A stretch of 64,000 nt of DNA from Candidatus Nanohaloarchaea archaeon. GTDB lineage: Archaea > Nanohalarchaeota > Nanosalinia > Nanosalinales > Nanosalinaceae. The notes below the pieces were generated by a model. The model did not search any database and had not been told where the DNA came from. It saw nothing but the letters and a program-made list of their open reading frames with translations. The stretch lies in assembly GCA_013343275.1 (NCBI GenBank), contig CP046106.1, positions 224,001-288,000 on the forward strand. The letters run 5' to 3'. The translations under genes and the position numbers were made by a program. Shown here piece after piece: positions 9,767 to 19,648 of this stretch. Each line of letters starts with the position of its first letter. The first letter of the stretch is position 1.

Positions 9767-9889
9767 AGACAGAACCCTCGTTGTTACTAAGTAATAACGT
9801 CATGCTCGTTTATATATCTTTTCTACAATGGAGGTGCCGACCTATACTCTTTGAGAGGTTTTTTATTCACGGCCTCACCTTTAGAACTT

Positions 9890-12800
9890 ATGAGTATTAG
9901 AAAAGCTCTAGCCATAGCTTTACTTCTCTCAGTACTGGCTGGAACTATCTCTGCCTACCAGTTTACAGGGGGTTCTGAAGACACAGGCACCGGGCCTCCT
10001 GAGCGACCTCCTCAACCATCTGCATGCTTGGATAGTAGCGATAATGATGGTGATGGCTTGGTGGATGGAAAAGATTCGGACAGCGATAATGATGGAACTC
10101 CTAACTGGCAAGAGGTAAATGCTGATGGCCCTGATCCTGGCTGCTCGAAACCATATGATTACGATGACAGCGAGGCAAATATGTACGATCTCGATGCATC
10201 TTGGATCTTCGGCACGAGATTCTCGGCCCCTACTCCGCAAGATTCATCTGTATTCTATGGTTCGGAACTCATAACAAATGGATCATCTACTACTGTCCAT
10301 CCAGATACTGTATCTACTTCTAACTCTATAATTGAGTATTATGTTGAAGGATCCTCTGATAACTGGGGTGGAGGCGACAAAAAGTCGGTTGAGATCTCTA
10401 ACTCTGAGAACAGGCCACAGGGCACAATGACTGGCACAACAACTACCGGTGTTGAAGGATCTGCTGAACTAATAGATGCACCTTATAATTCTAGTAGCGA
10501 TGGCCAGTGTGGGGATGGTATAGAGAACTCAGATGAGAACAACCTTGACTGTCCGGAGGATTATGGCCTTCCGGATGATGCAGGCACCACAAAAAGTACT
10601 TCATCTGAAACTCTTTCCGACAGGTTTAATGCCAAAGTCAGTCAGTGGAATGTGAACAATGCTAACGGTGTCTCTGTAGGCGATCCCAACAATCAGGCTA
10701 ACAACGGCGAGTATCTGACTTCAAAGAATAATAATGATGATCTGGCTGATAATATCGAGTACAGGTTCAGTAACTCTGGTCAAGGCCTTGTAGCTCCTGA
10801 AGCGGAAGGCCAGAAAACTGATGATATAAGCGGATCCTTCCCTTACACCAGCGACCTGCAGAGTGGAACGCAGGCTAACGCTGGAGAGACTACTGATCAG
10901 GTTGTTCAGGATCAACAGTGGACTGATGTTCCCGACTACTATCTGAAGGATGCTGATGGAGATGGTGCTCCGGACGAGCTCTGGATGGTTTACCCTGAGA
11001 AAGTTGGAGAAACAAAGATGGGATCGGTAACTGACTATGACCTTACCGGTGATAAAAATGTTGAGACATGGGAGGTCACCGGTAGCGAGGGTACCTGCTC
11101 TGGGGCTAATTGCTCTACTTCCGGCAGTGTCTGTAGCAGTGTTGATCAGGGTACAGATACAAAATATACTCTTGAAAGTGAGACCACGACTACTGTCTCC
11201 GATAGTGGTAATGAACAGTACTACGCTGATAGCAGCGGGAGCTACCAGCACAGTAAAGAAAATACCAATCTCAATCAGGTTTCAGTTGAAGTAACACATC
11301 ATCCTGGCTACAATACAGAGACTGTTGATGATGACGGCTGTGGAGGGTATACTACTACTGGTTCCTGTACCTCAAGCCAGGGGTGTAGCTCAGGTTCAAC
11401 TCCTGTCGCCAGCGAAGTTTCCGACCAGGATATTGCTACAGGCCAGACCAGTAACACGATTACTTACAGGTACGAAGATATCGAACTTCATACAGCAAAA
11501 GTCTTTGATTTGAATCCGGCGGAAAATCCTTCTTACTCGCCGGCATTTCCTACAAATGCTCTTTTCGAGGGAGATACTTTCAAGTACGGAACTGAGGCAT
11601 ATTCTCGTTCCAATATCAAGTACAATGCGTTTAACGGGGATGCCTACTTTGCTTATACTGTAGATAAAGATAGTAAGACTCTGGGCAATGATGAGGCCTT
11701 GACTTCCAGCAGTTACCATATCCAGGTTGATGGGACGGCATTTGAGTCCGTAAGAGATTATGAGAAGACCTGGGATGTAGATGGGCCTGAAGGCCAGTCA
11801 GACGGGTATATTGCGGTGCTTCACCGTAAGGGTTACCTTGGTTCGGGACAGGTTGAGCTACAGGGTAAGAGCAACAGGTTGATGGCGACGGAGATTACTG
11901 ATGGGAACTCTGCAGTAGATATTGTTCAGCCATCAGATGCTCTAGGAGAGGTAGGTCTTGCCGGCGGTTGTAATGATCCTTTCACTCACTGTATTGCGGC
12001 TGTAGATGTAATGTTCCGTAACATTAACAACTGGCGTAATCCGAAAGATCCTTCTGTCCAGACTGGTAGTGAGGCCTATCCTACAGCTGTGACTTACAGG
12101 CATGATATAGAGAATACTAATCGCTCTCTCGGAGTTTGTAAGATGTATCAGGAGCTCGACCCTGATGCAGCGATTGGTTCTAACTACGGTTCAAATACTG
12201 ATAGCCCCACCCAGAGTTCTGATAAAAGGTGTGCCGGCGATACGGCCACTGAGTTCTGGGTTACTATGGAAGGCCCAGAGATTGATGAAAGCGCTATCTC
12301 TACCCACCACCTTGAAGGAACCGCGGACAGAATTACTGACTGTCTATGGTATGGTGTAGATGTTCCGGAGGGAACAGTCAGGACATCAGGAACTCAGGAG
12401 TACTCTCAGTATGAACTGGGAGGTTACTCTCCTGACGGTGAGGTGTGCTTAGCTATAGATAGCAGCGGAGAGTCATTTACTCAGAATGGAAAGACCTACG
12501 AGGAAACTCTCCCTTCCAATGATCCTGGAGATGACGTCCCTTATGATAACTACGACTACGACGATGATGGAACTGTTGAAGAGGTAGGCGGAGAATGGTA
12601 TGATCTAGATAATAAGAGGATAAACCAGTACCTCAGAAACAACGGGAATATACTGGTAACAAATGGAGATCCAGATAACGCATCGCAGATAGCCTATTAC
12701 TGGCGTCAAAATGAGAACCCGTCACATCCCGACTTCAATCCGAAAGGCCTTGGATCAGGGGATAATATCGGCGTAACGCTCGAAGACGACTGCGGCCCTC

Positions 12801-12892
12801 TGCTTATCGGCTGCGATGAGTCAAAATCAAAGACTGAAGGGAAGGAGCCTGTGTTCTTCAGCTTCTTCTGGCAGCTGGTGGGCTTCCAGTGA
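9890..12892 (+). CDS. Large secreted acidic Cys-rich surface protein with DxDxDG Ca-binding-type motifs
   Basis: Signal peptide from MSIRKALAIALLL; DNDGDGLVD, DSDNDGTP, DADGDGAPD motifs; about 1000 aa. Confidence 0.75.
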   Translation: MSIRKALAIALLLSVLAGTISAYQFTGGSEDTGTGPPERPPQPSACLDSSDNDGDGLVDGKDSDSDNDGTPNWQEVNADGPDPGCSKPYDYDDSEANMYDLDASWIFGTRFSAPTPQDSSVFYGSELITNGSSTTVHPDTVSTSNSIIEYYVEGSSDNWGGGDKKSVEISNSENRPQGTMTGTTTTGVEGSAELIDAPYNSSSDGQCGDGIENSDENNLDCPEDYGLPDDAGTTKSTSSETLSDRFNAKVSQWNVNNANGVSVGDPNNQANNGEYLTSKNNNDDLADNIEYRFSNSGQGLVAPEAEGQKTDDISGSFPYTSDLQSGTQANAGETTDQVVQDQQWTDVPDYYLKDADGDGAPDELWMVYPEKVGETKMGSVTDYDLTGDKNVETWEVTGSEGTCSGANCSTSGSVCSSVDQGTDTKYTLESETTTTVSDSGNEQYYADSSGSYQHSKENTNLNQVSVEVTHHPGYNTETVDDDGCGGYTTTGSCTSSQGCSSGSTPVASEVSDQDIATGQTSNTITYRYEDIELHTAKVFDLNPAENPSYSPAFPTNALFEGDTFKYGTEAYSRSNIKYNAFNGDAYFAYTVDKDSKTLGNDEALTSSSYHIQVDGTAFESVRDYEKTWDVDGPEGQSDGYIAVLHRKGYLGSGQVELQGKSNRLMATEITDGNSAVDIVQPSDALGEVGLAGGCNDPFTHCIAAVDVMFRNINNWRNPKDPSVQTGSEAYPTAVTYRHDIENTNRSLGVCKMYQELDPDAAIGSNYGSNTDSPTQSSDKRCAGDTATEFWVTMEGPEIDESAISTHHLEGTADRITDCLWYGVDVPEGTVRTSGTQEYSQYELGGYSPDGEVCLAIDSSGESFTQNGKTYEETLPSNDPGDDVPYDNYDYDDDGTVEEVGGEWYDLDNKRINQYLRNNGNILVTNGDPDNASQIAYYWRQNENPSHPDFNPKGLGSGDNIGVTLEDDCGPLLIGCDESKSKTEGKEPVFFSFFWQLVGFQ

Positions 12893-15810
12893 GAAAAGCA
12901 GTTCTTGTAGCTTCCCTACTGCTTTCCCTGTTCGTAGCTCCTGCTTCAGGTCAGATGTATATGGAGGACATGTCAGGAACGCAGAGCGACTGGAGTTGCT
13001 ATACTACAGGAAGATCGCTGGATAAATGTACTACAGATGCTACCGGAAGTTACTCCACTCCAGAACAGTCGGCAAAGGCCACGGGGAGATACGAGATCTG
13101 TGGTAAAGGAGGCATAACGAAATCTTTCAATTTCTCTCGGCAGCCAAAGTATCTGAGCTTTGACTACAGAATAAGTCTAGACAGCTGGGGCAAGGGAACT
13201 ATATACATCAACGACTCCTCCGGAGTCACAGAGCTTATTGACAAGAAAAGAACAGGTTCAACCTATGATTCTGGCTGGAGAAGCGAAACATTTGTAGTCA
13301 GCTCACAGGACAAAGACTTCTCTCTCACCGCAGGAAGTATAAGCAGCTCCAGCTTCTGCGACAGCAAGCCGGAAGATAGATCATGGAAAGTATGGGTAGA
13401 CGATATCAAGGTAACATCCAGCGCAGACAAACCAAATGAACCTTCCTTCCGACAGCCAGAGGATGGAGCAACGGCAACACGCACAACAGTAGAACTCTCA
13501 ACAAGGATAACAGATCCTAACGACGACACTATGAACGTAAGTTTCCACAGAGCCGATGGCACACTGATAGAGAACGAAACGGCTCCCAGTGGAGCAACAG
13601 TCTCAGTATACTGGGGAGGTCTAAGTGATGGAGGGAGTTACAGTTGGTACATCAAAGCCTGTGATGGAACCGGCCAGTGCAGAATTACCGATACCTGGAG
13701 TTTTACTGTAGATAAGGCTGCAGAGAAAACATATACTGGAGGAGGCCTGATGGATGAAGACTATACAAAGATCGGTGAGAACAGGAGCGTAGGAAACTAC
13801 TACTTTGAGGGCTATGTTAACAAGCTGGAGGAGGCTACCAACCAGCTGGAGGATGGAATGGATACAAGTTACTACAGTCCAAGCGATTACGGTATCTGGT
13901 CGGACTCCGATGGCTCTCAGGGGAGTGCAGATCAATGGGCCATCACAAAGTACCAGAACTGGTCGATATCGAACAGAGGGATTCCATATCCTCCAGGCCC
14001 AACAGTAATCTCTCCGCAGATAAGACAGGGGGGTCTTTACCATCCAAGCTACAGCAGCGAGGGAGGAACATATTATCACAAGACCTACGGCGGGCCATAT
14101 CGAAGCGTTCCTACTAATCTAGGCGCCTTCACCTCTCCAAGTGTTTCCAAGAAGGACAAGGTAATGGGCAACTCGTTCGCTGCTGTAGCTGCACAGAACT
14201 TTACAGGTGCTTTCGGGCCTGTTCGAGAAGGTGATGGAGTATGGGTAGATCCTGATGATATACGGTCAATGAATGAATTATTGGAGGGGCCTTGGCTACA
14301 GAAACTTGTATACAATACTGACCTTACCGGTCCTGACATGGGTCTCGGCTTCAATCTTGGAGATAACCGAGGAATAAGCTATCGTTCAGGATTTGGCTCT
14401 CCAAGATCCTACGTTATGTACGGTAATGTCTACTTTGAAGGAGAAGCGGATAAAGTTGATAATGACGGAGATGGAGTTGTAGACGAGGAATGGAACAGCA
14501 ATGGAACAGTCGGTGAATCCAAGCCTTATATAGAGGCCCCGATGTGTGGTGATGATCAATACGAATACCTGCTTGAAGAGCTAGGAGAGTCAAAGAGATC
14601 GGTAGCAGGAGATGGAAAGTATGCCTGTACTGATTCACAGAACGTCTGTATAGATATGAGTGCGGAAGGAAGTAAGGTATTCGGCCTAGGAGTTTACCGG
14701 CAGACAGATGAGCCTGATGAAGCCTTCGGGAGATCCAAGCTTGATAAGGAGGCCTGTGCAGTGATAGGCACCGATACAGTTGCTAAGTGGTATGATCAGG
14801 ACTTCAAACAGAGGCTGTGCCGCGACAACACTCTCTACGGTAATAGCGGCGTAAGATGGTTCTCGGAAAGTGAGATCGCACAGCACCCAGCAGCGTTCAA
14901 AGGAGGAATAGACGACGACTTCAACGAATTTATAGAGGAAAACAGGGCGCTGGAAGGAACAACCTCGCAAAACCTCCAGTCAGATCCTACAAGAACCTAC
15001 ACATCTTCCAGCAGCCTGGGCCAGTACAGTCCCGTACCGACAGGTAATGCGGATCAGAGAAACGGTGTCTCAAATACTACAATAGCAACACCTGGCTTCT
15101 GTGGTGGAGATGACTCATCAGAATACCTGGTAACGCAGGAAGGCGTAACGAGTCTCATTCAGACCAACAACTCCATCATAGGAGTTGCTTCACAGCCGGG
15201 CGCATGTATACTTGATGGAGCCAAGTATCCTGAAGTTTCCAGCGACAAAAGGGAGCTTTACAGTCCTGGAGCGCAGATAGAGTTCGATCTCGGAAGCGAT
15301 ACCAAGATGATATCATGTTACGGCGGAGCCTGGTACCAGAAATGGCCTGTAGTATTCAGAAAAGATACTGTAGATGTGCCTCTAGGAACCTCTCGACTAG
15401 CACAGTTCAAGGTAATCAACGTGGAGACAGAGGCAAAAACCTTCAATATCGAGCTTAAGGACGACAGCTCCAGTAACTGGAACAACGCATGGTCATACCT
15501 ATCCCAGGAAGATGCCACAAGATCCGATACAGTAACAGCGACTATAGGCGCTCAGTCATCCAGGACATACACAGTTAAACTCTACGGAGGGAACTCAAAC
15601 GTAGACAACGCACAGATCACGGTAAGAGCTGCCTCAGCAGATGGCACAATATCCGGTGACGACAGCATCCGAATTGATGTAACAAAGGCCCCTAACTCCA
15701 CGCAGACCGGAGCGACTTCCAGCAACGCAGTACCCGGAATAGGCCTACCACAGATAGTAGTGCTGCTTATGCTATCCTCAACAATGTTCCTCTACTGGAA
15801 CAAACCGTAA
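12889..15810 (+). CDS. Large secreted surface protein with Ig/FN3-like domain and C-terminal PGF-CTERM-like anchor
   Basis: Signal peptide; GTGA overlap with upstream gene; CGDD..EYL repeats; C-terminal VPGIG followed by a TM helix. Confidence 0.75.
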   Translation: MRKAVLVASLLLSLFVAPASGQMYMEDMSGTQSDWSCYTTGRSLDKCTTDATGSYSTPEQSAKATGRYEICGKGGITKSFNFSRQPKYLSFDYRISLDSWGKGTIYINDSSGVTELIDKKRTGSTYDSGWRSETFVVSSQDKDFSLTAGSISSSSFCDSKPEDRSWKVWVDDIKVTSSADKPNEPSFRQPEDGATATRTTVELSTRITDPNDDTMNVSFHRADGTLIENETAPSGATVSVYWGGLSDGGSYSWYIKACDGTGQCRITDTWSFTVDKAAEKTYTGGGLMDEDYTKIGENRSVGNYYFEGYVNKLEEATNQLEDGMDTSYYSPSDYGIWSDSDGSQGSADQWAITKYQNWSISNRGIPYPPGPTVISPQIRQGGLYHPSYSSEGGTYYHKTYGGPYRSVPTNLGAFTSPSVSKKDKVMGNSFAAVAAQNFTGAFGPVREGDGVWVDPDDIRSMNELLEGPWLQKLVYNTDLTGPDMGLGFNLGDNRGISYRSGFGSPRSYVMYGNVYFEGEADKVDNDGDGVVDEEWNSNGTVGESKPYIEAPMCGDDQYEYLLEELGESKRSVAGDGKYACTDSQNVCIDMSAEGSKVFGLGVYRQTDEPDEAFGRSKLDKEACAVIGTDTVAKWYDQDFKQRLCRDNTLYGNSGVRWFSESEIAQHPAAFKGGIDDDFNEFIEENRALEGTTSQNLQSDPTRTYTSSSSLGQYSPVPTGNADQRNGVSNTTIATPGFCGGDDSSEYLVTQEGVTSLIQTNNSIIGVASQPGACILDGAKYPEVSSDKRELYSPGAQIEFDLGSDTKMISCYGGAWYQKWPVVFRKDTVDVPLGTSRLAQFKVINVETEAKTFNIELKDDSSSNWNNAWSYLSQEDATRSDTVTATIGAQSSRTYTVKLYGGNSNVDNAQITVRAASADGTISGDDSIRIDVTKAPNSTQTGATSSNAVPGIGLPQIVVLLMLSSTMFLYWNKP

Positions 15811-15842
15811 ACTATTTCAAAATTCTCTTTCTCTTTTACTGT

Positions 15843-15896
15843 ATGAACGGTGGCTACGTTCCGCAGCTTCCTCAACAAAGCTGCATTGCAGGATAA
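15843..15896 (+). CDS. uORF1, putative leader peptide MNGGYVPQLPQQSCIAG
   Basis: Hand translation ATG AAC GGT GGC TAC GTT CCG...GGA TAA; shares GGYVP with uORF2; 2 Pro codons. Confidence 0.6.
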   Translation: MNGGYVPQLPQQSCIAG

Positions 15897-15951
15897 ACAG
15901 TATTCTCAACATTTCCTTAGCCACTGCTCTACCCATTCTAACGTGATTTCT

Positions 15952-16017
15952 ATGACACAATCAACCAAAGGTGGATATGTTCCACACGACTGGTTACGCT
16001 CAGTCGACACGCAATAA
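15952..16017 (+). CDS. uORF2, putative leader peptide MTQSTKGGYVPHDWLRSVDTQ
   Basis: GGT GGA TAT GTT CCA; differs from the uORF1 motif only at three synonymous third positions. Confidence 0.62.
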   Translation: MTQSTKGGYVPHDWLRSVDTQ

Positions 16018-16037
16018 TGCGTTCAGAAGAACGCATT
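16016..16037 (+). promoter_or_regulatory. Perfect 9-bp RNA hairpin covering the uORF2 stop/uORF3 start
   Basis: AATGCGTTC-AGAA-GAACGCATT. Confidence 0.6.
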
Positions 16038-16097
16038 CAAACACAACTCAAAACCTTTCAACAGAAAAATTCTCAGGCCGGTCGCTATGAAACGTAG
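16017..16097 (+). CDS. uORF3 (MRSEERIQTQLKTFQQKNSQAGRYET), overlapping the ProRS2 start out of frame
   Basis: TAATG coupling with uORF2; stop TAG at 16095-16097 lies inside the ProRS2 ORF. Confidence 0.4.
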   Translation: MRSEERIQTQLKTFQQKNSQAGRYET

Positions 16098-17313
16098 CGA
16101 ACTATTTGCCACAACCTCCAAGGAATCGGAGGCTGAGTTCGACTGCCGCAGTGCAGAACTTGCCGTAAAGGCCGGGCTGGTCCACAACTATGGTTCCGGA
16201 ACTTTCGGATTCACACACCTGGGCCGGAAAGTACTGGACAATATAGAAGAAGTAATCAGGGATGAGATGGACGAGATAGGCCAGGAAGTGACGATGAACA
16301 TCCTGCAGAACTCGGAGATGTGGGAGAAGTCCGGGAGGTGGAAGAACTTTGAGGGAGACGAGTTCTTCACACTGAAGAACCGTGACAACAGAGATTTCAC
16401 GATCGCGGCGACGCATGAAGAAGCCTCTGTCGAACTTGTCCGGAAGAAGATTCGATCCTACAGAGACCTGGACTTCATCATCTACCAGATAGGTCGAAAG
16501 TTCAGAGACGACAGAGCCAGGAAAGGCCTTCTGCGTGGGAAAGAGTTCTTCATGAAGGATGCCTACAGCTTCCACGCCGACAGAGAGCAACTTCAGGAAA
16601 CCTACCATGAAATGATTGAGGCCTACACCACGATCTTCGAGAAACTAGGCCTTGAATTTTCCAGAGTCTCCGCTGAAAACGGTTCAATGGGAGGCAGTCA
16701 GAGCCATGAGTTCATGGCTGAATCAGAGATCGGTAGCGACACATACCTCAAATGCGTGGATTCGGAGTGCAGATACGGCGCCAAAGATCTGGGTGAAGAG
16801 AAATGCCGTGAATGTGGCTCTGAACTTCAGGATGTCAGCGGCATCGAGATAGGCCATCTGTTCAAGCTTGGCAAAAGATACAGCTCCAAAATGGATCTGA
16901 CATTTACCGATGAAGATGGAGAGGAGAAAGATGTCATCATGGCCTCCTACGGAATCGGTGTATCAAGGCTGATCGCAGCAATAATCGAGCAGAACAACGA
17001 TGAAAACGGCATCACCTGGAACAGTAAGGTGTCTGCCTTTGACTGCTCGATCATCATTGCAAGACATGAAGATGCGGCAGTTGAAAAGGCGGAAGAGCTG
17101 CACGATAAACTTTCCGAAAGAGGCCTTGAAGTCCTGCTCTTCGATGAAGGATCTGTCGGTGAGAAGTTCGCTGAGTCCGATCTAATGGGGATCAAACGGA
17201 AGGTCATATTGGGGAATAACTACCTGGAGAACGATGTGATTGAGGTAGAGAAGAGGGATGGACGAACCTTCCAGGCCGACTTTGAGGAGATTAAGGAGGT
17301 GGTATCCTCCTGA
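16087..17313 (+). CDS. proS: Bacterial-type prolyl-tRNA synthetase paralog (short form without full INS domain), contains no proline
   Basis: ATHEE, YQIGRKFRD..R.GLLRGKEFFMKDAYSFH (motif 2), GIEIGHLFKLG, MASYGIGVSR (motif 3), anticodon-binding domain. Confidence 0.9.
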   Translation: MKRSELFATTSKESEAEFDCRSAELAVKAGLVHNYGSGTFGFTHLGRKVLDNIEEVIRDEMDEIGQEVTMNILQNSEMWEKSGRWKNFEGDEFFTLKNRDNRDFTIAATHEEASVELVRKKIRSYRDLDFIIYQIGRKFRDDRARKGLLRGKEFFMKDAYSFHADREQLQETYHEMIEAYTTIFEKLGLEFSRVSAENGSMGGSQSHEFMAESEIGSDTYLKCVDSECRYGAKDLGEEKCRECGSELQDVSGIEIGHLFKLGKRYSSKMDLTFTDEDGEEKDVIMASYGIGVSRLIAAIIEQNNDENGITWNSKVSAFDCSIIIARHEDAAVEKAEELHDKLSERGLEVLLFDEGSVGEKFAESDLMGIKRKVILGNNYLENDVIEVEKRDGRTFQADFEEIKEVVSS

Positions 17314-18169: not shown

Positions 18170-19648
18170 ATGAGCCAGGAACTCGGTATCACGGTAAAGA
18201 AAGATCAGAACCCTTCAGAATGGTATACGCAGGTAGTCCAGAAAGCAGAGCTAGCGGATTACGCACCTGTCAAGGGCTGCATGATAATCAAGCCGTACGG
18301 CAACAAGCTATGGGAATCAATCAAGGAAGACTTCAACTCCAAGATCACAGATACCGGGGTAGAAAACGCATACTTCCCACTATTCATACCGGAGAGCTAC
18401 CTGGAAAAAGAAGAAGATATTGTAGAAGGGTTTGATCCTGAAGTCGCATGGGTAACACATGGAGGCGACAAAGAACTGGAGGAAAGACTTGCAGTAAGGC
18501 CTACATCTGAAAGCATAATCGCACCATACATGGCTGACGAAGTAAGAAGCCACAGAGACCTGCCTCTAAGACTCAATCAGTGGGCCAACGTTGTACGCTG
18601 GGAAGCCACAGACACAAGGCCTTTCCTGAGGACCAGAGAGTTCCTCTGGCAGGAAGGACACACAGCACATGCAACAGAGGAAAGTGCTGACGAAGAGACT
18701 ATGTTGAGGCTGGAGCAGTATCAGGAAGTAATCGAAGATCACCTTGCCATTCCTTCGATCCTGGGTTACAAGCCGGAGCATGATAAGTTCCCGGGCGCCA
18801 AATACACTACAACAATCGAAACCTTGATGCCGGATGGAAAAAGTATTCAGTCGGGAACATCTCACCAGCTGGGCCAGCACTTTGCCGAGGCCTTCGAGAT
18901 AGAGTTCGAGGATGAGGACTCGGATACTCAGACTGCGTGGACGACGTCCTGGGGCCTCTCAACAAGGACGATCGGTGCTTTGATCATGGCACACGGTGAC
19001 GATGATGGCCTTAGATTGCCTCCTCGTGTTGCACCGACACAAGTGGTCGTCGTACCTATCTATCAGGAGGACAATCAGGAAGAAGTAGTTGAATACGCAG
19101 AAAAAGTGACGGAAGAGCTCGAAGCTGAAGGCCTGAGAGTAGACCTCGATGACAGAGATCACAGAACTCCTGGCTACAAGTTCAACGAATGGGAGTTGAA
19201 AGGAGTACCTCTCAGAGTAGAGATAGGGCCTAACGAAGTAGAAGACGATGCAGTTACACCTGTTAGAAGAGACAGCGGCGAGAAAAACATGGGCCAGGAC
19301 AGAGAAGAGTTCGTGGAGGAAGCCGAAGAAGTACTGGAAAACATCCAGGAATCACTTTACAACGAGTTAGAAGAGTATCTGCATGAAAATATCAGAGAGG
19401 CCGACTCGAAGAACGAGATTCTGGCGACAATAGGCAAGAACCGTGGATACGTCAAGGCCCGATGGTGCGGAAAAGAGGAATGCGAGGCCGAAGTGAAGGA
19501 CGAAGTCTCTGCCGAGATCGTAGTGCTACCGTTCCGAGAGGACTCCAAGCCTGCTACTATCCAGGCCTCCGAAGAACACATCGACGGAGAATGCGCAGTC
19601 TGCGGTGAAGAAGCCGAGAGATGGGCCTACTTTGCGAAAAATTACTGA
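18170..19648 (+). CDS. proS: Prolyl-tRNA synthetase, archaeal/eukaryotic type (housekeeping)
   Basis: AVRPTSE, NQWANVVRWE, PFLRTREFLWQEGHT, TSWGLSTR, C-terminal Zn domain ending FAKNY. Confidence 0.97.
   Translation: MSQELGITVKKDQNPSEWYTQVVQKAELADYAPVKGCMIIKPYGNKLWESIKEDFNSKITDTGVENAYFPLFIPESYLEKEEDIVEGFDPEVAWVTHGGDKELEERLAVRPTSESIIAPYMADEVRSHRDLPLRLNQWANVVRWEATDTRPFLRTREFLWQEGHTAHATEESADEETMLRLEQYQEVIEDHLAIPSILGYKPEHDKFPGAKYTTTIETLMPDGKSIQSGTSHQLGQHFAEAFEIEFEDEDSDTQTAWTTSWGLSTRTIGALIMAHGDDDGLRLPPRVAPTQVVVVPIYQEDNQEEVVEYAEKVTEELEAEGLRVDLDDRDHRTPGYKFNEWELKGVPLRVEIGPNEVEDDAVTPVRRDSGEKNMGQDREEFVEEAEEVLENIQESLYNELEEYLHENIREADSKNEILATIGKNRGYVKARWCGKEECEAEVKDEVSAEIVVLPFREDSKPATIQASEEHIDGECAVCGEEAERWAYFAKNY

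Follow-up and report, generated by a model that had tools for sequence, protein, structure and literature searches.

Leader-peptide amino-acid attenuation is a textbook mechanism of bacteria, and the classical attenuators of this kind include pheM-pheST, which serves a tRNA synthetase. The T-box riboswitches of the Firmicutes control proS, proBA and proI, and the operator of ThrRS is a mimic of the tRNA anticodon arm that is bound by the synthetase. In mycobacteria, leaderless small ORFs (sORFs) with Cys codons were described to attenuate operons, which together form the 'Cys ribulon' (Canestrari et al., bioRxiv 10.1101/834739). A limited literature search found no described case of leader-peptide amino-acid attenuation in archaea, and no paper on the leader element that is reported here.

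The leader element lies in a window of 64,000 nucleotides (the whole stretch of DNA that was analysed, and whose positions are used below) from a 916-kb single-contig genome of a Candidatus Nanohaloarchaea archaeon. We consider the chances about even that it is a cis-regulatory attenuator, mediated by the ribosome and sensing proline, for the proline-supply genes of one Nanohaloarchaea family.

Locus, reading frames and start signals

Two small upstream frames (uORF1 and uORF2) are held by a 276-nt spacer, of which the 5' neighbour is a 973-aa ORF (12889-15810) and the 3' neighbour is the presumed regulated gene of 408 aa (16087-17313, + strand). The product of this gene has the Pfam domains tRNA-synt_2b and HGTP_anticodon, and it scored 404.5 bits against TIGR00409 (cut-off 306.7), with the match split into two stretches. 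Its scores against PRK09194 and PRK12325 were under the respective cut-offs. The closest solved structures are bacterial prolyl-tRNA synthetases (ProRS), again aligned in two stretches. On these matches the product is assigned as a bacterial-type ProRS, and the split TIGR00409 match indicates that the INS editing domain is absent; it is called the paralog below. The canonical archaeal-type ProRS (18170-19648, + strand; TIGR00408, 577.7 bits) begins 850 nt beyond the paralog, and its upstream sequence in this genome is a plain leaderless promoter with no sORF leader. The two ProRS types are near neighbours on the same strand. An opposite-strand zinc-ribbon gene lies between them in the window, and only about 100 nt with no long ORF lie between them at another locus (L005). 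On the 5' side, the long ORFs 9851-12892 and 12889-15810 (1013 and 973 aa) overlap at their ends, and neither had a match in Pfam or NCBIfam; after PGIGLPQ, the 973-aa ORF ends in a hydrophobic stretch that recalls the anchor of a cell-surface protein.

The first frame, uORF1 (15843-15896, + strand), is predicted to be leaderless and encodes MNGGYVPQLPQQSCIAG* (17 aa). It opens with ATG AAC GGT GGC TAC GTT CCG and ends with TAA; its Val-Pro codons are at 15858-15863, and its ATG is conserved in relatives. The second frame, uORF2 (15952-16017, + strand), encodes MTQSTKGGYVPHDWLRSVDTQ* (21 aa), opens with ATG ACA CAA TCA ACC AAA GGT GGA TAT GTT CCA and ends with TAA; its Val-Pro codons are at 15979-15984, and both its ATG and its motif recur in relatives. 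The first-pass annotation had noticed that the two frames share GGYVP with three mismatches, all at silent third positions, that the Pro codons are CCG and CCT in uORF1 and CCA in uORF2, and that each copy has an in-frame ATG. All of this is seen when the common 15-nt segments (15849-15863 and 15970-15984) and their frames are read directly. Motif copy 1, as delimited by the degenerate-word count and the collected copies, is GGTGGCTACGTTCC (15849-15862, + strand), and copy 2 coincides with a hairpin, H2 (15970-15985, + strand). Within the window by itself, the evidence from the repeat is weak: the degenerate word GGTGRNNNNRTYCC was counted 3 times where 0.84 were expected, and 6 of 100 shuffles gave 3 or more. 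The repeat is nevertheless not a matter of chance, because both frames are conserved upstream of the orthologous gene.

The paralog was found in 12 of the 70 genomes of the class, at 13 loci that all belong to one family, and its distribution is patchy. A leader with both frames stands upstream of it at 13/13 loci in these 12 genomes, including one locus (L010) that was counted though N masks the uORF1 region. An exact-pattern scan of metagenome contigs gave 12 matches: 10 with the paralog start, one cut by the contig end and one unrelated, which is a small ORF of bacterial look; several of these matches are identical to genome loci. In total, 53 motif copies were collected from 29 distinct leader loci, and one locus (L014) has three copies and an additional 72-aa ORF. 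Besides the motifs, the conserved blocks are the TATA-like box, block B, GTGATTTCTATG and block D. Because the leaders are close relatives, with an effective sequence number of 2.81 in Infernal, the counts overstate their independence.

Some loci differ in their surroundings. A small acidic ORF of 61-79 aa lies between the leader and the paralog in L014 (on the reverse strand), L112 and L134, with no Pfam match for any of the three. The copies of L112 and L014 share 41% identity; that of L134 looks alike in style but had no match by tblastn. Moreover, L112 (G056:C47) has an intact leader, but only the last ~75 residues of the paralog are left (56% identity to residues 320-394), and this looks like the remnant of a deleted gene. 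In L010, L016, L122 and L123, N runs interrupt or abut the leader, and parts of it are unreadable.

The start signals of the genome were derived from 565 of its own ORFs. TTTAA/TTAAA peaks 30-26 nt 5' of the first ATGs, which marks leaderless genes, and GGTGA peaks 15-11 nt 5' of the starts. The TATA-like box TTTCAAAA (15815-15822, + strand) is assigned to a predicted promoter, P1, by this genome-wide peak and by the spacing in the leaders. It stands 28 nt 5' of the uORF1 ATG, and a TATA-like word is found 28-35 nt before this ATG in 17/19 leaders. For uORF2, the block GTGATTTCTATG (15943-15954, + strand) consists of the Shine-Dalgarno-like (SD) GUGAU, a 4-nt spacer and the ATG, and the 16S rRNA 3' end, GGATCACCTCC, is complementary to this GUGAU. 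In the alignment, the G, two Ts, four of the five TTTCT bases and the ATG of this block are invariant; the fifth TTTCT base is T in 16/18 rows, and the second G and the A of the SD block are at least 90% conserved. SD-led genes with a nearby TATA box are too few to set a typical spacing.

The position of the start codons also follows the frame. For example, the uORF1 ATG is shifted by exactly 3 nt in L006, L016 has an in-frame ATGATG, and in L014 the uORF2 SD/ATG block is substituted by AGGTG and an in-frame ATG. The gap from the uORF2 ATG to the motif is 0, 6 or 9 alignment columns; indels 5' of the motif measure 3, 6 or 9 nt, and those 3' of the Pro codon measure 1-2 nt. An in-frame ATG precedes 52 of the 53 motif copies, a count for which the search was made in frame only and for which the alignment and the TATA spacing are independent checks; the exception is the middle copy of L014. 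Since these start signals match those of the genome, both frames look translated, uORF1 as a leaderless frame and uORF2 from its own SD.

Base pairing in the leader RNA

RNAalifold analysis of 18 leaders (17 distinct) gave a helix between uORF1 codons 2-5 and block B, ~70 nt downstream, and a hairpin at motif 2. The helix, H1, has 11 bp. Its 5' arm, AACGGTGGCTA (15846-15856, + strand), includes the GGTGG of motif 1, and its 3' arm is block B, TAGCCACTGCT (15918-15928, + strand). H1 includes the GTGGCTA/TAGCCAC pairing of the first-pass annotation, which exists as an inverted repeat with the arms 15845-15856 and 15918-15929. Both-sided changes occur in 6/11 pairs, and 88% of the cells are paired, whereas sliding the partner lowers this to 30-53%. 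With 0.323, the covariation score exceeds that of the shuffled data (0.215 +/- 0.015), and 0/500 shuffles reached it. These results show that H1, which overlaps uORF1, is backed by covariation. The hairpin H2 (GTGGA 15971-15975 / TCCAC 15981-15985; loop TATGT), which also appears in the folds, keeps its five core pairs. It varies only via G-U, which is accepted at three of the five stem pairs, and the two pairs formed by the CC of the Pro codon are constant (17/17). The other pairing proposed earlier, GCAGCTT/AAGCTGC, likewise exists (15863-15869 and 15878-15884). It forms a small hairpin (15863-15884, + strand) in single-sequence folds, which is lineage-specific; the corresponding alignment columns 28-51 are fully occupied only by the window's own sequence.

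The silent mismatches had been taken to point to selection on the peptide rather than on the DNA or RNA. This claim fails, because the peptide varies, GGT and GTT have almost always the same third base among the leaders, and the CACGAC block 3' of the uORF2 Pro codon (15985-15990, + strand) is kept in three reading frames (GTTCCA-CACGAC, GTTCCAC-CACGAC and GTTCCACT-CACGAC). Across the relatives, the peptide motif is [G/C/S]-[G/D/E]-[Y/C/S/H/R]-[V/I]-P in uORF1 and G-G-[Y/R/C/H]-[V/I/L]-P in uORF2; the V/I/L-P part of GGYVP is kept, whereas residues 1-3 change non-conservatively. The silent differences between the two window copies sit at base-paired helix positions. In the aligned leaders, uORF1 has column entropies of 0.38/0.60/0.69 at codon positions 1/2/3 and uORF2 has 0.44/0.57/0.65, and neither shows a clear excess at the third position. 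With no coding periodicity in the entropies, RNA pairing alone can account for nearly all of the conserved sequence.

The 3' part of the leader has further, variable hairpins. One of these, ATGCGTTC/GAACGCAT (16017-16036, + strand), is predicted by folding just 3' of uORF2; hairpins at this site are present in some leaders and missing from the short forms. An optional insertion of ~55 nt was seen right after motif 2 in L012/L023, L021, L026, L029, L122, L123 and L150. It consists of a hairpin with a variable covarying stem, GAGCAS, a second hairpin (TCTC/GAGA core) and a second GCGTTCCAC, in this order, and the uORF2 stop of these leaders is located inside it; its presence also speaks against selection on the peptide. 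Block D, TCAAAACC TTTCAAC (16048-16062, + strand), has a core that is (nearly) invariant in alignment A2. In relatives this block (TCAAAAYC) lies 37-49 nt upstream of the main start, and words of its type also occur 30-41 nt 5' of long-ORF starts elsewhere in the genome. The G content is 3.4% from block D to 12 nt upstream of the start codon. Block D may be a second, internal promoter of TATA/BRE-like type, or it may be a G-poor and unstructured RNA spacer. No pairing of block D with other leader segments was found by eye.

RNAalifold analysis of the 3' half recovered H2 only, with no conserved alternative helix, terminator or RBS-sequestering helix. RBS sequestration by GUUCCACC was rejected; GCGUUC-C-ACCA and UGGUGAACGC pair by hand in one lineage, and the pairing is not conserved. 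In the window, the RBS pairing CGACUGG/CCGGUCG differs from that of the other lineage and is not conserved either, and RNAalifold recovered neither of the two. A scan for bacterial sigma-70 promoters and intrinsic terminators gave chance-level matches only. The motif is complementary to UCACC (the anti-SD) and to GGAAC in the 16S helix-45 loop; the pairing with helix 45 is taken as a coincidence, since the adenines of this loop are normally dimethylated. A programmed frameshift at GUU CCN was discarded because the site is not slippery. ARAGORN found no tRNA within the window, and tRNA-like mimicry was rejected, with no anticodon or acceptor likeness seen by eye against the two tRNA-Pro genes of the genome. 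In a search of Rfam (4227 models, T-box included), nothing reached the gathering score in the window, and nothing appeared at E up to 10 in 15780-16120.

A structured leader of this kind might instead be read by a trans factor, which could be an RNA-binding protein, a ligand such as proline, or tRNA-Pro; the mini-ORFs would then be incidental or would serve to open the RNA. The covariation of H1, the conservation of H2 and the covarying stems of the two-hairpin insertion, with its second GCGTTCCAC, agree with this explanation. So do the occurrence of CACGAC in three frames, the motif copy without an ORF and the lack of codon periodicity, and a similar set of genes forms the proline T-box regulon of the Firmicutes. 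However, a trans factor leaves unexplained the in-frame ATG with a start signal in 52/53 copies and the frame-keeping indels before the motif, and the leader had no Rfam match even at the permissive threshold. The Pro codon is base-paired in both contexts and is thus not displayed as a specifier, and the loops lack the NGG anticodon of the two tRNA-Pro genes. The paralog itself is excluded as the factor, because the leader is present in genomes where the paralog was not found. We therefore regard reading by a trans factor as rather unlikely, and the proline-sensing attenuator is preferred below.

Proline genes and sister cassettes

When a covariance model built from the leader was run against the 70 genomes of the class, it matched in 23. 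A full-length leader stands before proC-proB in G059 and G015 (Pfam F420_oxidored, P5CR_dimer and AA_kinase). Another full-length leader precedes the canonical ProRS in G004, and this ProRS is 76% identical to that of the window; shorter, sORF-only forms precede the canonical ProRS in G007 and G023. At E <= 1e-60, the search for the paralog came up empty in all five of these genomes (completeness 82-97%). The canonical proS adjoins the paralog in G000 and G020, and the leader-proS junctions could stem from deletion rather than from separate recruitment. ProC occurs in only 2/50 family genomes, and both copies are behind the leader. In L117:1745-3124 and L122:3-1229 (- strand), the P5C reductase and glutamate-5-kinase domains share one frame of more than 409-460 aa that is still open where the locus ends. 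ProC and ProB may thus be fused in these two nanohaloarchaeal genomes, the sole carriers of ProC among the 50.

A census of GGTGGRYRYRTTCY in the 50 family genomes gave 91 matches, versus 10 for the reversed control. The CC (Pro) form accounts for 31 matches, with 22 copies in 21 leader loci. Downstream of these loci are the paralog (13), proCB (2), the canonical proS (2), small ORFs (2) and contig ends (2). The remaining 9 CC matches lie inside long ORFs and have no sORF; none of the 31 proved to be a Pro-form sORF in front of a gene unrelated to proline. Both motif copies of the 17 distinct aligned leaders have the CC of the Pro codon without exception, and a Pro codon is present in 53/53 copies across the 29 loci, for which the search pattern required CC. 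A U at this place, which the sister cassettes carry, would keep the hairpin via G-U, and yet CC never varies in the Pro lineage. This constancy is the strongest argument that the Pro codon itself, and not pairing alone, appears to be under selection.

The CU (Leu) form gave 60 matches in the same 50 genomes, and 43/50 genomes match the pattern. Of the 21 Leu forms inspected, 20 belong to sORFs that read M-x(n)-GG[RC]VL... and are predicted to be leaderless, having a TATA box ~30 nt upstream; a proline gene is downstream of none of the 21. These sORFs precede unrelated genes, including those for unknown acidic proteins and a probable glutamine amidotransferase (assigned by eye), and the cassette itself is therefore judged not to be proline-specific. 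The genome of the window has two Leu-type cassettes, both outside the window (G000:C1:319098-319111 and 672879-672892, both - strand). The Leu-type mini-ORFs have the same GGTGGAYGCGTTCT hairpin, and a block-D-like word (TCAAAAYC/TCTAAAAYC) is found past their stop. Further Leu-type cassettes are at L127, L129, L135, L136, L138, L142-L146, L151, L152, L159-L161, L163, L164 and L166, and some cassettes are tandem (GG[CR]F...GG[CR]VL). In L143, L144, L145, L160 and L142, genes for prephenate dehydratase (PDT+ACT), chorismate mutase type II and a class I/II aminotransferase are located 600-900 nt downstream of Leu-type or tandem cassettes, and a small unknown gene separates these aromatic genes from the cassette. 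A phenylalanine analogue was considered, as tandem GG[CR]F...GG[CR]VL sORFs stand 600-800 nt before prephenate dehydratase in three genomes; it was rejected, since an unrelated gene intervenes and the synteny is limited to one genus.

The Leu-type sORFs also bear on nascent-peptide arrest, in which G-G-x-V in the exit tunnel would stop the ribosome at Pro in a manner that depends on the amino-acid sequence and not merely on the tRNA supply. The G-G-x-V core recurs in at least 20 Leu-type sORFs with variable N-terminal lengths, and conservation stops at the Pro codon, as it does in SecM-type arrest peptides. Against this, the Gly positions of uORF1 vary (G/C/S and G/D/E) and covary with block B, x can be Y, C, R, S or H, and GGT and GTT hardly change in their third base; an arrest peptide would conserve the residues before the stall codon, but constancy is limited here to [V/I/L]-P. 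Peptide-dependent arrest is thus improbable. The earlier proposal of a conditional arrest at Pro can be kept in part; a stall at a hungry Pro codon in structured RNA fits better than a peptide-specific arrest motif.

The wide occurrence of Leu-type cassettes before unrelated genes could also mean that the leader is a generic expression cassette of promoter, leaderless mini-cistron and hairpin, with no amino-acid sensing. The proline link would then reflect descent from one ancestral cluster, and the adjacency of the paralog and the canonical proS in G000 and G020 would be in line with such a cluster. But CC never becomes CU in the 17 distinct aligned leaders, though CU keeps the hairpin, the Pro form stands before each of the two rare proC-proB operons, and 0/31 CC matches are a Pro-form sORF before a non-proline gene. 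Little credence is therefore given to a cassette without sensing. The first-pass suggestion that the paralog has these peptides as its substrates or partners in trans is hardly credible: nothing favours it beyond the frames adjoining the paralog, the peptides are poorly conserved apart from V-P, and genomes in which no paralog was found also have the leader, before proCB and the canonical proS.

Proposed mechanism and comparison with known systems

The proline-sensing attenuator builds on the observed helices, the start signals, the invariant codon and the association with proline genes. We infer from these that P1 is transcribed, that the frames are translated, that ribosomes stall at the Pro codon, and that the response would be an increase in expression. 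Transcription would probably start at the uORF1 ATG. As a mini-cistron, uORF1 would be translated in leaderless fashion, and uORF2 would rely on a Shine-Dalgarno of its own. In each frame, the ribosome would meet the invariant [V/I]-Pro pair 4-7 nt after the SD-like GGUGR and within RNA structure; the GGUGR upstream of Val-Pro may add a ribosome pause. When Pro-tRNA(Pro) is scarce, the ribosome would wait at the Pro codon and would cover the H1 5' arm (uORF1) or both H2 arms (uORF2), which would alter the fold or the exposure of the leader. The altered fold would then lead to higher downstream expression, i.e. of the second ProRS here, and of proC-proB or the only ProRS elsewhere. The candidate outputs are RBS access, factor-dependent premature termination, and interplay with a possible block-D promoter. 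Factor-dependent termination by aCPSF1/FttA at U tracts has been described in archaea; the U runs in the leader are 2-6 nt only.

Leader sORFs with start signals are present, as judged by those signals, and they contain cognate codons. Several points nevertheless speak against the attenuator. Each frame has a single Pro codon (sometimes two) and not a run as in classical attenuators, and the middle motif copy of L014 is without an in-frame ATG. Block D is promoter-like; if it is a promoter, the main gene may be off the leader transcript. The same direction is taken by the failure to find a conserved alternative helix, terminator or RBS-hiding helix, by the lack of codon periodicity, by the kinship of the leaders, by the possible origin of the leader-proS junctions through deletion, and by the Leu-type cassettes in front of unrelated genes. 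A broader form of the attenuator can be put forward only tentatively, and we would not expect it to hold in full. The leader would be a modular switch that is read by the ribosome, in which a leaderless mini-ORF with its GGUGR...GUU hairpin would hold the ribosome, and the codon that follows, which is Pro here and Leu in dozens of sister cassettes, would determine what the switch senses. It would represent the first archaeal 'ribulon' of amino-acid attenuation, and would turn on the horizontally acquired bacterial ProRS, or proline synthesis, when prolyl-tRNA is short.

A leader that links three kinds of proline genes is a test case for ribosome-coupled regulation in an archaeal transcription system, and it sits in tiny-genome symbionts that depend on their host for amino acids. 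It may illustrate how a transferred bacterial synthetase gene was placed under host-type control. Moreover, it points to a broader, unannotated family of leaderless mini-ORF cassettes.

Comparison with the described systems showed both similarities and differences. Like the ThrRS operator, the leader has two similar stem-loops before the gene of a dimeric class II synthetase. However, the H2 loops are YRYGU and contain no NGG, whereas the tRNA-Pro anticodons are UGG and GGG, and proC-proB has the leader too, in genomes where no paralog was found. It thus has neither the cognate anticodon-like loop nor the restriction to its own gene of a tRNA mimic that is bound by the synthetase. In the T-box regulon of the Firmicutes, as here, ProRS and proline biosynthesis genes are under one leader type. 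The leader differs in that it has mini-ORFs with start signals, and no T-box covariance-model match, specifier loop or UGGN bulge.

Classical attenuators have a short leader ORF with cognate codons before amino-acid or synthetase genes, and this arrangement is also found here; moreover, the similar regions 1 and 3 could alternately pair with region 2. The differences are that this leader belongs to an archaeal transcription system and has no intrinsic terminator hairpin with a U run, and that it has single codons in two separate sORFs, with a conserved hairpin around the sensing codon. The closest worked precedent is that of the mycobacterial Cys sORF attenuators, as described in the preprint (bioRxiv 10.1101/834739). 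Those are bacterial and have runs of Cys codons, whereas the archaeal leader has a single Pro codon in each of its two sORFs. The output of the Cys attenuators depends on stalled ribosomes that block an RBS-hiding helix, and no such conserved helix is found in this leader. On the other hand, the two systems share a leaderless mini-ORF that comes first, cognate codons, several loci of the same pathway, and RNA structure that overlaps the sORF.
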